Positions 3,845 through 53,949 of a stretch of DNA of 64,000 bases are shown piece after piece. The DNA comes from Oscillospiraceae bacterium (lineage in GTDB: Bacteria > Bacillota > Clostridia > Oscillospirales > Ruminococcaceae), in contig JAJQIF010000016.1 of assembly GCA_021199355.1 (NCBI GenBank), positions 10,230 through 74,229 of the forward strand. Reading direction: 5' to 3'. Numbering within the stretch: the stretch's first letter is position 1; each line of letters opens with the position of its first letter. The notes under the pieces were generated by a model that searched no databases, was not told the origin of the DNA, and worked only from the letters and a program-made list of their open reading frames with translations. A program made the position numbers and the translations under genes.

Positions 3845-4195
3845 GGGGGCGTAAAGGTTTCGACGGGGATTCCGAAGGCGAATAAGCGAGTAGAGAACGC
3901 ACTGATCTCTTTAACCTGTGCAAACCTAAATTTTAAACGACAATAATAGTTTAGAATTGGCTGCTGCCTAATAGCGGCCCGTCCTGCCGATGAGTACTGC
4001 GGCATCGGTCTGGGCGTCGATTAGCAGTGAACGTTCTGCGGTAACTCCGGTAGCCGCAGGATGAATTACCGGATACCGAAGTCACAAGCCTGCTTACCGG
4101 CGTGAGATTTCGGAAATCCAAAAGATAAGCTACACTCGTAGAAAGTTCTCCCAAAGAGTTTTCGGACATGGGTTCGATTCCCATCGCCTCCACCA
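3845..4195 (+). ncRNA. ssrA: tmRNA (SsrA)
   Basis: 5' GGGGGCG pairs with 3' CGCCTCC, followed by ACCA. T-arm GGGTTCGATTCCC. Internal tag frame ..AAC GAC AAT AAT AGT TTA GAA TTG GCT GCT GCC TAA TAG (..NDNNSLELAAA**) at about 3936-3974. Confidence 0.92.
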
Positions 4196-12124: not shown

Positions 12125-12153
12125 AATAAAAAAGCTGTTGACAAAACAACAGC
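12125..12153 (-). terminator. Terminator of the small-peptide mRNA (locus 1); its stem contains the -35 of the antisense promoter
   Basis: Minus strand GCTGTTG-TTTTGT-CAACAGC followed by TTTTTTATT. Confidence 0.65.
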
Positions 12154-12166
12154 GATGGAGTATAAT
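12138..12166 (+). promoter_or_regulatory. Consensus sigma-A promoter of the antisense RNA (locus 1)
   Basis: TTGACA-17 nt-TATAAT, perfect hexamers. Confidence 0.75.
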
Positions 12167-12172
12167 AAAAGA

Positions 12173-12307
12173 GGTGAGAGGATAGGTTACGGACAAAGTC
12201 CCTAACTTAGCCTGAATTGCAGTTCAGGCGACGGTCACTCTTTCCAATAATCAAAGACCATTAGTTAGAATGCCGCGCTGAATCAATCAGACGCGGTTAT
12301 TTCTTCT
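12173..12307 (+). ncRNA. Candidate type I antitoxin / antisense RNA (locus 1)
   Basis: No ORF. Starts about 7 nt after the -10. Internal hairpins (CCTGAA..TTCAGG). Ends at hairpin 12273-12296 plus TTATTTCTTCT. Complementary to the 3' UTR and last codons of the convergent peptide gene. Confidence 0.55.
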
Positions 12308-12389
12308 GGTTAGAACCCACGGTGTAACCAACAGTAAAGGCAGTCAAGAGCAAAGCTAAGACCTCCAAGATTATAGAAATAATCTCCAT
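12297..12389 (-). CDS. Candidate type I toxin: 30-aa hydrophobic peptide MEIISIILEVLALLLTAFTVGYTVGSNQKK
   Basis: GGAGGTG SD 7 nt upstream of the ATG. Single TM-length helix plus KK tail. Own consensus promoter. Paralog at 53099-53188. Confidence 0.6.
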   Translation of the reverse strand: MEIISIILEVLALLLTAFTVGYTVGSNQKK

Positions 12390-12440
12390 CAGCGTCACCT
12401 CCTCTCACGAGGAAAGAGTAGCCAACCTCTCACTGTCGAC

Positions 12441-12469
12441 ATTATAGCATATAAATTGACAACTGTCAA
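12441..12469 (-). promoter_or_regulatory. Consensus sigma-A promoter of the small-peptide gene (locus 1)
   Basis: Minus strand TTGACA-17 nt-TATAAT. The -35 sits in the palindrome TTGACA-GT-TGTCAA. Confidence 0.75.
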
Positions 12470-51426: not shown

Positions 51427-51642
51427 ATGACCGTTACGGCAACAGAATTCAAAATGAACCTCGGAAAATACCTCGTTCTTGCGGAAACCGAGGACGTATT
51501 TATCTCGAAAAACGGCAAAGTAAGCGTCAAGCTTGTCAACAGCAATCAGGATAAGGTCGAGGCAATGCGGTCTCTCTTCGGAATTCTCCCGTCGGACATT
51601 TCTCTTGAAGAAGCCCGGGAAGAGAGGCTCGGGAAGATATGA
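51427..51642 (+). CDS. Type II antitoxin, Phd/YefM family
   Basis: 71 aa; N-terminal VTATEFKMNLGKYL pattern. 4-nt overlap with the PIN gene. Confidence 0.75.
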   Translation: MTVTATEFKMNLGKYLVLAETEDVFISKNGKVSVKLVNSNQDKVEAMRSLFGILPSDISLEEAREERLGKI

Positions 51643-52064
51643 ACGTAATTGTGGACACCTGCATCATCATCGACGCTCTCGCCAACCGTGAGCCGTTTGC
51701 GGGGGACGCCCAGGCACTTTGCCTTTCTGTTGCAAACGATGAAATCACAGGATTTATCCCCGCGAAATCCGTTGCGGACATCTACTATATCATGCACAAG
51801 TGCTTCCACAGCGATTCGCAGACCCGGGAACTGCTGAAAAAGCTCTTTATGTCCTTCGGCATTCTCGACACCACTGCCCTTGACTGCCGCAACGCCCTGA
51901 CTTCCCCGATTTCCGACTTCGAGGACGCCATCCTCGCCGAAACCGCCTATAGATGCGGCGTGGATTACATCGTCACGAGGAATACGCGTGACTTCGCCCG
52001 CTCCGTTGTGCCGGTGGTGACGGCTGGGGAGATTATGGAGATGTGTGGGGATAATTCATTATGA
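51639..52064 (+). CDS. vapC: Type II toxin, PIN-domain ribonuclease VapC
   Basis: 141 aa; VIVDTCIIIDAL N-terminal acidic motif, later D/E residues (FEDAI). Confidence 0.8.
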   Translation: MNVIVDTCIIIDALANREPFAGDAQALCLSVANDEITGFIPAKSVADIYYIMHKCFHSDSQTRELLKKLFMSFGILDTTALDCRNALTSPISDFEDAILAETAYRCGVDYIVTRNTRDFARSVVPVVTAGEIMEMCGDNSL

Positions 52065-52963
52065 ACGAAACCAGAAATCTTACCGCCGAGGAATGGGCGG
52101 AATTTGCAGGGGTATTTGAGAAAGCCGGGGTTTACAGCCCCGATTCGGTGCGGAGATTCGTCGATACCCGCCTCAACAAAATATACGACGTCTTCCTATT
52201 GGACGGCAAGCTTGTGTTGAAGAAGTCCGATCGCGACAAGGAGAAGTTTGAGAATTATTTCGCCGGTCACGGCTTCTCGGTCCCGCTTGTTGTCTCAAGC
52301 TTTCGGCATGGCGACGACTGCTGGGTGACTATGCCGTATATAGACGGCACGGACGCAAGAGATTGCTCGCCCGAGGATGCAGAGAAAGTCGGCAGGGAGC
52401 TCGCGAAAATTCAGAGCTACTATCTCGGCACCGGTACCAATCCCGACGGGTGCAAAAGCTACTTTGACCGCAAGGTTCTTCGGTTCTGGGAGAAGAGCCG
52501 CAAGTATTTTCCCGAATACAGCGACATTTTCGGAGCAATCGAAGCCCGTTTCTTTTCGGCTCCACGGACACTGATTCACGATGATTTTCTCCCGATAAAC
52601 GCTCTTCTGGACGGCGAAAACGCCTGGCTCATCGACTGGACGTATGCCGACATTCTCCCCTACTTTCTGGACTTGGGGCGGTTCGCCTTTGTCGGGTACG
52701 AAGATGGCAAGCCGTACATCTCCACCGATTCCGCAAAGGCGTTCCTTGAGGCTTACTACGAAGAAATGCGCCGGAATCCCCGGTTTACAGTTAACAGGCA
52801 GGAATTCTCCCGCGACACCGCCATCTCCGCCTTCTGCCAGTACTCAATGTTTGTATATTTCGAGGAAGAGGAAAAAGTGAAAGAGTCAGAGGATTATCGC
52901 ATGCTTGGGGAGATTCTTGGGTATCTTGATAAGGAATTTAAAAGCACAAAAAAATCCTCTTGA
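52061..52963 (+). CDS. APH/choline-kinase-like phosphotransferase
   Basis: 300 aa. Brenner motif LIHDDFLPINAL and LIDWTYA (DxD-like) loop. ATGA overlap with vapC. Confidence 0.7.
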   Translation: MNETRNLTAEEWAEFAGVFEKAGVYSPDSVRRFVDTRLNKIYDVFLLDGKLVLKKSDRDKEKFENYFAGHGFSVPLVVSSFRHGDDCWVTMPYIDGTDARDCSPEDAEKVGRELAKIQSYYLGTGTNPDGCKSYFDRKVLRFWEKSRKYFPEYSDIFGAIEARFFSAPRTLIHDDFLPINALLDGENAWLIDWTYADILPYFLDLGRFAFVGYEDGKPYISTDSAKAFLEAYYEEMRRNPRFTVNRQEFSRDTAISAFCQYSMFVYFEEEEKVKESEDYRMLGEILGYLDKEFKSTKKSS

Positions 52964-52971
52964 CAAAGAGG
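52946..52971 (-). terminator. Terminator of the small-peptide mRNA (locus 2); its stem contains the -35 of the antisense promoter and the kinase stop codon
   Basis: Minus strand CCTCTT-TGTC-AAGAGG followed by ATTTTTTTG. Confidence 0.6.
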
Positions 52972-52988
52972 AAGAAGTGGCATATAAT
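52960..52988 (+). promoter_or_regulatory. Consensus sigma-A promoter of the antisense RNA (locus 2)
   Basis: TTGACA-17 nt-TATAAT. Confidence 0.75.
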
Positions 52989-52994
52989 AAAAGT

Positions 52995-53108
52995 AGCGAG
53001 AGGGTTGCCTGAACGCCAATTCAGACAACACGGTCACTCTCCGAACAAATAATGTTACAGGAAAGCGAAGCTGTTTTTGACCATCCGGTCAAGGACAGCT
53101 ATTTCTTT
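52995..53108 (+). ncRNA. Candidate type I antitoxin / antisense RNA (locus 2)
   Basis: No ORF. Shares the block CGGTCACTCT with the locus 1 RNA. Ends at the 14-bp hairpin 53069-53100 plus ATTTCTTT, which is the complement of the Lys-Lys-stop codons. Confidence 0.55.
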
Positions 53109-53188
53109 GAGCTATTGCCGATGGTAATGCCCAAATTGATAGCCGAAATCAGCAAACCCAGAAGTTGAATCATAGTTGAAACGTCCAT
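53099..53188 (-). CDS. Candidate type I toxin: 29-aa hydrophobic peptide MDVSTMIQLLGLLISAINLGITIGNSSKK
   Basis: AAAGGAG SD 8 nt upstream. Homologous to the 12297-12389 peptide (..G.T.G.N..KK* tail). Own promoter. Confidence 0.6.
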   Translation of the reverse strand: MDVSTMIQLLGLLISAINLGITIGNSSKK

Positions 53189-53238
53189 GAGCATCACTCC
53201 TTTCCGTTCGGAAGAAGTGACTGCCTCTCGCTGAATGT

Positions 53239-53267
53239 ATTGTATCATATAAAGAACTTATTGTCAA
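53239..53267 (-). promoter_or_regulatory. Sigma-A promoter of the small-peptide gene (locus 2), TTGACA-17-TACAAT
   Basis: Minus-strand hexamers. The -35 lies within the palindrome ATTGACAAT. Confidence 0.7.
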
Positions 53268-53282
53268 TCTTTGCCGGAAATT

Positions 53283-53460
53283 TTGTATTATCAGCTTGAA
53301 GTTGATATAAAGAAACAACCGCAACATAGTATAGCGGTTAGCGGTCAATCTTCAAGTTTTTGAATTTTAGAGGTTGTACCCCAAACTGCTGGAACAGTTT
53401 CGTCTCCTCATGTCATTACTATACGTCATTCATCCCTCTTTGTCAAGAGGCTTTTTTATT
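53283..53460. ncRNA. Convergent promoter/terminator pair without an ORF (possible overlapping sRNA pair or decayed TA copy)
   Basis: + strand: TTGTAT-17-TATAAA (53283-53311), then hairpin CCTCTT-TGTC-AAGAGG plus T-tract (53435-53460). - strand: TTGACA-17-TATAGT (53446-53418), then AACCGC..GCGGTT plus U-rich (53339-53305). Confidence 0.4.
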
Positions 53461-53595: not shown

Positions 53596-53949
53596 ATGTC
53601 AATGCCGGTGCCGGTATACAGAGGAGAGATTTATTATGCGGACTTAAGTCCCGTAATTGGCAGTGAACAAGGAGGAATCCGTCCCGTACTTATAGTTCAG
53701 AACGACGTTGGAAACCGTCATTCGCCGACGGTCATCGCCGCCGCTATCACAAGTCAACGGGAAAAGACCCACCTGCCGACGCATATCGAGATAGACTCGA
53801 ACTCATGCGGGCTCGCAAAGGATAGCATTGTTCTTTTGGAGCAGATTCGCACGATTGACAAAAAGCGCTTGAAGGAGCGCATGGGCGTTTTGGACCAGAC
53901 CTCTATGGACAAAATAAATCAGGCACTTGCCGTGAGTTTAGGAATGTAG
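53596..53949 (+). CDS. mazF: MazF/PemK-family endoribonuclease toxin
   Basis: 117 aa; RGEIYYADLSPVIGSEQGGIRPVLIVQND..., typical MazF/EndoA. Confidence 0.9.
   Translation: MSMPVPVYRGEIYYADLSPVIGSEQGGIRPVLIVQNDVGNRHSPTVIAAAITSQREKTHLPTHIEIDSNSCGLAKDSIVLLEQIRTIDKKRLKERMGVLDQTSMDKINQALAVSLGM

Follow-up and report, generated by a model that had tools for sequence, protein, structure and literature searches.

Locus 2, a compact module of ~330 bp in a 64,000-nt stretch of an Oscillospiraceae bacterium genome (contig JAJQIF010000016.1; the whole stretch is called the window here), is a genuine pair of small genes that is conserved, has so far escaped annotation and is restricted to a lineage of uncultured gut-type Oscillospiraceae. 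We consider it probable that it is one copy of a previously undescribed family akin to toxin–antitoxin (TA) systems of type I, in which the gene for an antisense RNA lies inside the 3' untranslated region (UTR) of the mRNA for a small hydrophobic peptide. The designation 'toxin–antitoxin' is drawn from this architecture and is used for a putative function.

A first-pass annotation of the window had reported in 52946-53267 two promoters, a Shine–Dalgarno (SD) sequence, a short open reading frame (ORF) and a hairpin, and all of these are found where they had been placed (Table 1). That picture was incomplete, as the terminator at 52972-52955 on the minus strand did not appear in it, and it left out a 3'UTR of ~150 nt covering the antisense gene and a long-range helix between the 5' and 3' parts of the mRNA. 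The hairpin after the peptide stop codon has no U-run on the minus strand and a terminator stands at 52972-52955; the peptide mRNA therefore most likely extends from ~53232 to 52948 (~285 nt) and spans the whole antisense gene, with a 45-nt 5'UTR, the 29-codon ORF and the long 3'UTR. Its predicted start lies 6 nt past the -10 box in all modules. The antisense gene is entirely contained in the 3'UTR and overlaps the ORF only at the last few codons and the stop.

The antisense promoter of locus 2 has the same arrangement in all family members, and the TGA stop codon (52961-52963) of a 300-aa kinase ORF (52061-52963) falls inside its -35 box. The peptide mRNA promoter carries a TG extension, and TTGACA/T-17-TGnTAyAAT is the peptide mRNA promoter in all modules. 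The predicted antisense RNA is made up of the 5' segment AGCGAGAGG, hairpin 1 (53004-53029), the CU-rich segment GGTCACTCTCC (53032-53042), a terminator hairpin (53069-53100) and a U-run; the 14 pairs of the terminator hairpin are followed by ATTTCTTT, the complement of the Lys-Lys-stop codons. A covariance model of the antisense RNA, R1, matches 52989-53108 with 95.9 bits. At the level of sequence, an antisense gene with its own promoter and terminator, a feature of the type I class, is present in all members and in the toxin-less copies described below.

Table 1. Positions of predicted features in the window, for locus 2, the adjacent element and locus 1
Feature	Position	Strand	Details
Antisense RNA promoter, locus 2	52960-52988	+	TTGACA-17-TATAAT; -35 52960-52965, -10 52983-52988; 12/12 consensus positions
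Peptide mRNA promoter, locus 2	53267-53239	-	TTGACA-17-TACAAT; -35 53267-53262, extended -10 TGATACAAT ending 53239
Peptide ORF, locus 2	53188-53099	-	MDVSTMIQLLGLLISAINLGITIGNSSKK; 29 codons plus TAG stop
SD sequence AAAGGAG	53203-53197	-	8 nt before the ATG of the 29-codon ORF
Antisense RNA (predicted, antitoxin-like), locus 2	52994-53108	+	~115 nt; predicted start and end points
SD hairpin in 5'UTR	53193-53221	-	SD buried against CU-rich anti-SD segment; GAAC tetraloop
5' arm of long-range helix	53224-53232	-	First 9 nt of peptide mRNA, AGCGAGAGG
3'UTR arm of long-range helix	52995-53003	-	CCUCUCGCU on the mRNA; exact complement of antisense RNA 5' end
Peptide mRNA intrinsic terminator	52948-52972	-	Hairpin 52972-52955 plus U7; stem holds the -35 box of the antisense promoter
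Possible degenerate toxin-less antisense-type gene	53309-53457	-	Directly upstream of the peptide mRNA promoter
Locus 1 (paralogue)	12134-12469		Layout as locus 2
Locus 1 mRNA terminator and antisense -35	12134-12153		
Locus 1 antisense promoter	12138-12166		
Locus 1 antisense RNA	~12172-12306		
Locus 1 ORF	12389-12297	-	MEIISIILEVLALLLTAFTVGYTVGSNQKK
Locus 1 mRNA 5' end	~12434		
Locus 1 peptide mRNA promoter	12469-12441		

The proposal that loci 1 and 2 are paralogues that have diverged while keeping one type I TA-like layout held up, and this layout recurs in at least 23 complete modules. The family further includes two toxin-less antisense genes, and one additional copy is cut off at the end of the fetched sequence; the members are spread over nine genome assemblies of Oscillospiraceae/Ruminococcus and a few contigs from metagenomes. 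When one genome per species was scanned with the TATAATAAAAGNNGNGAGAGG pattern, 44 loci were returned, 15 of them true modules, all from metagenome-assembled genomes of Oscillospiraceae or 'Ruminococcus sp.', and the other 29 chance matches with no module behind them. The covariance model, which served as a search tool only (its automatic consensus structure missed hairpin 1, MAFFT having shifted subfamily B by 2 nt), found four more copies on the same contigs without the exact motif. A metagenome scan added two contigs with true loci and one chance match, and the single match in a motif scan of viral contigs (L001) was also by chance. Profile searching of 1.84 billion representative proteins yielded only seven related peptides, three of which led to further complete modules (L049-L051).

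Selection on the peptide is evident at the codon level. The first-pass annotation had named loss of the peptide frame in related loci as a refutation of its proposal; the frame is maintained everywhere, with synonymous change in excess. All complete modules keep the frame together with a strong SD (GGAGG or AGGAG) at a spacing of 6-9 nt, and insertions and deletions in the ORF are of whole codons. Within subfamilies the proportion of synonymous differences (pS) is 0.3-0.6 and that of nonsynonymous differences (pN) 0.06-0.16, with pN/pS of 0.15-0.35; the synonymous excess is seen in six pairs, with Fisher p from 0.012 to 4e-7. The 17 distinct peptides are 28-33 aa long and share as invariant residues M1, two Gly spaced as G-x3-G and one Lys. 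Four positions ahead of the first Gly almost all have an Ala, and the conserved motif is [ST]-A-x3-G-x3-G. The tail motif G-x-T-x-G-x-N-x(1-2)-KK, which had been put forward for the peptides of loci 1 and 2, does not describe locus 2, where the tail reads G-I-T-I-G-N-S-S-K-K. The grand average of hydropathy (GRAVY) of the hydrophobic core is 1.7-2.2 across the family and 1.74 at locus 2 (residues 3-24), and the product is predicted to be a single-pass membrane peptide with an acidic N-terminus, a hydrophobic helix and a Lys-Lys tail. A small hydrophobic, membrane-targeted peptide ORF with a charged tail, as is typical of the type I class, is thus present in sequence. One subfamily B peptide in the representative-protein library (P0002), in which the stop codon is lost, runs on to 47 aa (MDVETIILLLGLLISAVNLGITIGNNSKKWLTLDPFVKNQLRFFLTH); it may be an inactivated copy or a sequencing error.

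The first-pass annotation had also ascribed the likeness of the two loci to selection rather than to chance promoters, and this is borne out: promoters, SD, both terminators and the RNA helices are kept, with compensatory changes. The antisense RNA folds with a z-score of -4.3 and the ~285-nt mRNA at -102.9 kcal/mol, with a z-score of -5.7. The SD hairpin, GUCACUUCUUCC-GAAC-GGAAAGGAGUGAU at locus 2, is present in 20/20 modules at -11 to -17 kcal/mol, and shows the compensatory change CCUC:GAGG to CCCU:AGGG, even between the tandem copies at L037, which encode identical peptides. In the long-range helix the first nine nucleotides of the mRNA pair with the 3'UTR opposite the 5' end of the antisense RNA; the helix begins exactly 6 nt past the -10 box, and its positions 2-9 are paired, in all 20 modules. 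Exchanges occur at position 2 (G-C to A-U), position 3 (U-A to C-G via U.G) and position 5 (A-U to G.U). In an anchored alignment 98.4% of cells are paired and three of the nine pairs have changed on both sides; the covariation score was reached by 1 of 500 shuffles, and slid registers pair 43-71% of cells. RNAalifold gives the 5'-3' helix unprompted, and it appears in 15/15 single-sequence minimum-energy folds. The mRNA terminator hairpin with its U-run is found in 19/20 modules with at least six different stem sequences, and the antisense terminator shows the exchanges A-U to G-C and C-G to U-A.

In the distant member L049 a different 9-bp helix, AAGAGCUAC:GUAGCUCUU, has fully taken the place of the long-range helix and still stands at both predicted transcription starts. 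This member (1349-1775; European Nucleotide Archive ERZ27247126, an AT-rich contig adjoining dnaX) encodes MDIIKIIEVLSFMLTAFGLGYEIGSKSKNK, has a 117-nt 5'UTR, and has its mRNA terminator beyond the antisense promoter, not inside it. Hairpin 1 (53004-53029; equivalents in L010, L021, L032 and L040) forms in subfamily B with a C.A mismatch as antisense RNA and with G.U as mRNA 3'UTR, which hints that it is also selected in the mRNA.

From the architecture we infer how the module would be transcribed, the half-lives of its RNAs, the involvement of RNase III and the toxicity of the peptide. The strong extended -10 promoter would drive the mRNA, ending at the terminator that contains the -35 box of the convergent promoter, and the latter would drive the antisense RNA. 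Once folded, the primary mRNA, with its 5' end paired and its SD buried, would be closed, poorly translated and probably stable. The antisense RNA would form a full-length duplex with the 3'UTR that would be cut by RNase III, and its binding would further tighten sequestration of the SD, both by analogy with bsrG/SR4. In sequence, the 5' end and CU-rich motif of the antisense RNA are identical to the 5' end and anti-SD of the mRNA, so binding would displace the mRNA 5' end from the 3'UTR and free the anti-SD to close over the SD. Were the antisense RNA to fall, the peptide would be made, insert in the membrane and arrest growth.

The segments common to the antisense RNA and the 5'UTR in the same sense are GYGAGAGG and a GGUCACUCUUUCC-like one, and the 5'UTR can therefore pair either locally with the SD or with the 3'UTR; the anti-SD segment is paired with the 3'UTR in ~10/15 minimum-energy folds. 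When the antisense target was modelled as occupied, the cost of opening the SD and AUG rose by ~1-6 kcal/mol in 15/15 mRNAs. A tentative idea, which we would not yet bet on, is that of '5'-end mimicry', by which the antitoxin RNA, copying the 5' end and anti-SD of the mRNA with its own 5' end and CU-rich motif, evicts the 5'UTR when it binds the 3'UTR and so closes the SD. In the free mRNA the 5'UTR would dock on the 3'UTR and protect the 5' end, a docking that in several members would hold the anti-SD away from the SD; once evicted, the 5'UTR would snap over the SD and leave the 5' end exposed to decay. If true, this would be a remote 3'-to-5' switch hard-wired in the gene layout, with one hairpin common to the mRNA terminator and the antitoxin -35 box.

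The peptide could instead be a benign small membrane protein, such as a regulator or an accessory subunit, that is tuned by a cis-antisense RNA and is not part of a TA pair. Purifying selection would suit such a protein, as would the invariant G-x3-G, which suggests specific helix–helix contacts, and the position of the loci on chromosomes between housekeeping genes and outside plasmid and phage collections; the toxicity of the peptide is moreover a prediction from sequence. It is harder to reconcile with the presence in a genome of several paralogues that have diverged and lie at unrelated sites, a tandem duplicate among them, with the lack of any conserved neighbouring gene that might be a partner, and with the antisense-only survivors, which are the usual pattern of TA modules and not of a housekeeping accessory subunit. 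Both promoters are also near consensus, and the mRNA appears from modelling to be built translationally silent. On balance we regard a benign role as improbable. Considerably less plausible is that only the minus strand is transcribed, the plus promoter being incidental to the mRNA terminator hairpin, and that the structures in the 3'UTR act in cis, on mRNA stability and 5'-3' closure, with no antisense RNA. The -35 box does lie inside the mRNA terminator stem, the 3'UTR does pair with the 5' end of its own mRNA, and hairpin 1 of subfamily B is perfect only in the mRNA sense; every member, however, has TTGACA-17-TATAAT and a plus-strand terminator hairpin with a U-run, the plus-strand unit is intact in two loci that lack the ORF and the minus promoter (90-100 bits against the model), and L049 keeps the convergent promoter and terminator despite its different sequence.

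That the module is an arrangement that arose by chance, or an intergenic repeat without function, is refuted by the comparative data and we give it almost no credence, short, multi-copy and hairpin-bounded as it is. The pattern TTGACA-N17-TATAATAAAAGNNGNGAGAGG, the promoter and 5' motif common to loci 1 and 2, occurs twice in the window and not once in 100 shuffles, a 2-kb region has eight promoter-like sites against 2.0 expected, purifying selection acts on codons, compensatory change is seen in four helices, and the architecture is retained at 30-40% peptide identity.

Several points nonetheless weigh against a type I TA-like pair. A small membrane protein that has an antisense partner is not necessarily a toxin, and the ends of both transcripts are predicted from consensus motifs. 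The search pattern behind most members contained the -10 box and GAGAGG, and invariance of these bases in that subset is by construction; members found by other routes carry variants, e.g. TATAATATAGATGGTGAGAGG, GATGAGAGG and TAAGAT...GAAAGAGC. As the sequences form four or five subfamilies, the independent events behind the covariation are few. Opening of the SD already costs 5.5-10.5 kcal/mol in the modelled free mRNA, so the extra effect of the antisense RNA would be modest and is purely computational. Neither DNA nor peptide searches gave a match in 50,697 phage and 72,556 plasmid records, and a role in stabilisation is therefore not indicated.

Searches of curated resources placed the family in no named group. 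The 17 peptides matched no type I toxin in Pfam or NCBIfam, where only transmembrane-helix noise was obtained (E >= 0.046 and >= 0.05 respectively), nor anything better than E >= 0.016 in PHROGs, and PADLOC gave none. Holin-like, Fst/Ldr and BsrG/TxpA membership was considered, and the Pfam and NCBIfam profile searches supported none of these curated toxin families. Rfam had no match in the window to type I antitoxin RNAs at gathering thresholds, matches with E <= 10 being unrelated and far below gathering scores. Of eight peptides looked for among ~15 billion predicted proteins, seven are missing and the eighth is listed without a name, and a full-text literature search found the peptide strings in none of the papers searched. 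The family is thus new in sequence and belongs to a kind of system already known, set apart from the Clostridioides difficile toxins by published description.

Closest in layout are bsrG/SR4 of Bacillus subtilis and the related txpA/RatA, bsrE/SR5 and yonT/SR6, which likewise belong to a Gram-positive lineage and encode a small hydrophobic peptide with a Lys-rich C-terminus. As in bsrG/SR4, the convergent antisense RNA (52994-53108 within 53232-52948) is complementary to the 3' part of the toxin mRNA and not to the ribosome binding site (RBS). SR4 has a dual action, promoting RNase III decay and tightening SD sequestration at a distance (PMC8309996), and our model of the antisense-bound mRNA predicts an effect on the SD in the same direction. 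Homology of toxin or RNA sequence to the Bacillus bsrG-type families was not found in the Pfam, NCBIfam and Rfam searches. The present loci also differ from this group in having the antisense -35 box within the mRNA terminator and a long-range helix between the 5' and 3' parts, and in being absent from prophage and plasmid collections. T1TAdb lists 24 families, and in its description the Gram-positive ones carry a 3'-side antisense RNA with partial overlap of the mRNA (PMC8594479), whereas in the present loci a long 3'UTR encloses the antisense gene completely.

Other systems share single traits with the family. Like hok/Sok of plasmid R1 and aapA1/IsoA1 of Helicobacter pylori, the primary mRNA is predicted to be locked by pairing of its 5' end with a 3' element, with the SD buried; hok mRNA is activated by 3'-end processing and refolding (PMC8309996) and aapA1 expression is controlled by mRNA folding (PMC5416894). 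Those systems are Gram-negative, have no sequence similarity to the present family and direct the antisense RNA at the 5' region, whereas here it lies on the 3'UTR and its 5' end coincides with the docking site of the mRNA 5' end. With the par Fst RNA I/RNA II system of Enterococcus faecalis and sprA1/SprA1AS of Staphylococcus aureus it shares convergent transcription towards the 3' ends and sequestration of the toxin SD in an intramolecular 5' stem–loop, as is known from Fst RNA I (PMC8309996). In SprA1AS a segment that lies outside the overlap pairs with the RBS and so represses translation (PMC8309996), and by analogy the conserved CU-rich motif of the antisense RNA could do the same here. 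Unlike in par and sprA1, the overlap is the whole antisense RNA and not a shared terminator; direct repeats of the DRa/DRb type are absent, the two RNAs having common same-sense 5' sequences. The A-P-x3-G motif in the transmembrane helix of the Fst/Ldr group (PMC8309996) is missing, there being no proline in any of the 17 peptides.

The type I systems of C. difficile (CD2517.1/RCd8, CD0977.1/RCd11 and others) come from the same class, Clostridia, and also have a strong RBS 7-8 nt before the ATG. Their genes went unannotated owing to the small ORFs, and their toxins, of 34-53 aa, are encoded in prophages, beside CRISPR arrays and on plasmids and were reported to be without homology to other TA modules (PMC7699646). 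Compared by published description only, the present family differs in being 28-33 aa long and chromosomal, with no match in phage collections.

Copies per genome and their contexts in related assemblies, which the first-pass annotation had proposed to count and map, came to one to four copies (a lower bound) with differing neighbours, including a tandem pair at L037. The neighbouring genes differ at every one of these unrelated intergenic positions, and include solute-binding proteins, GlmS, BipA, threonyl-tRNA synthetase (ThrRS), a major facilitator superfamily (MFS) transporter and an MmeI-type restriction enzyme; the module is therefore an autonomous, self-contained unit. In two cases the toxin half has been deleted and the antisense gene left (L046 2838-2945 and L037 4549-4661). 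Both retain promoter and terminator and score 100 and 90 bits respectively. The deletion removes the ORF and its promoter directly after TTATTTCTTT, and both genes are then followed by a similar GGCTCCCCTG..AAGGGGAGC hairpin, so that they may derive from one deletion event.

Cross-neutralisation between loci 1 and 2 was rejected as the default expectation and is unlikely as modelled. Duplex energies were -268 and -230 kcal/mol for the cognate pairs and -90 and -76 kcal/mol for the cross pairs, the latter near the shuffled controls (mean -58 to -66, minima ~-72 kcal/mol), and the longest perfect block common to the two loci is 10 nt. The block CGGTCACTCT that had been reported for both antisense RNAs was correctly placed at 53031-53040 in locus 2, whereas in locus 1 it lies at 12232-12241 and not at 12229-12238. 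The locus 1 antisense RNA has a 25-nt insertion (ATAGGTTACGGACAAAGTCCCTAAC, 12182-12206) directly after the GAGAGG motif, forming an extra small hairpin, and this insertion is otherwise found only in the near-identical L034 copy.

The surroundings of locus 2 are a small island with Phd/YefM-PIN genes, a kinase gene and a lone PemK/MazF gene, in a window that matches a contig of Oscillospiraceae bacterium U.3_2 over 8 kb at 96% identity. A Phd/YefM-like antitoxin gene (51427-51642, +; below the Pfam cut-off), a PIN-domain toxin gene (51639-52064, +) and an APH-family phosphotransferase/kinase gene (52061-52963, +; Pfam APH) have overlapping stop and start codons (51427-52963), and with these adjoining genes locus 2 sits in a small toxin–antitoxin island. 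At L032 a kinase orthologue adjoins the module in the opposite orientation. A PemK/MazF-family toxin gene (53596-53949, +; Pfam E 1e-36) lies between the element at 53309-53457 and a PSP1 gene, with no MazE-like ORF on either side. Elsewhere in the window a transfer-messenger RNA (tmRNA) gene is present at 3845-4195 (+; Rfam RF00023, 166.7 bits).

Like the antisense genes of the family, the element at 53309-53457 has a promoter with an A-run and a CCTCTTGACAAAGAGG hairpin (TTGACA-17-TATAGT at 53446-53418) and a terminator with a GTTTCTTT tail, enclosing a body of ~100 nt that is unrelated to the family and has no ORF behind it. Its covariance-model score is weak (53309-53418; 14.3 bits, E 0.81), and a 90% identical copy occurs at L032 (1219-1367), 5.6 kb from the module there. 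The element was considered as a trans antitoxin and rejected, as the duplexes modelled with either toxin mRNA were energetically no better than shuffles. It could be a copy that has decayed and lost its toxin, or an independent small RNA, and its membership in the system is uncertain.

With locus 2 and its relatives, a group of uncultured gut-type Oscillospiraceae joins the few Firmicutes in which such modules are known. The family will interest specialists, the kind of system being already known, and its compact, well-delimited module has distinct RNA features that lend themselves to testing, in that the antisense gene is nested, the terminator hairpin holds a -35 box and the 5'-3' helix covaries. 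If the peptide is indeed toxic, the present module could be used for counter-selection or to mark strains in organisms difficult to manipulate, as type I modules of C. difficile have been (PMC7699646).

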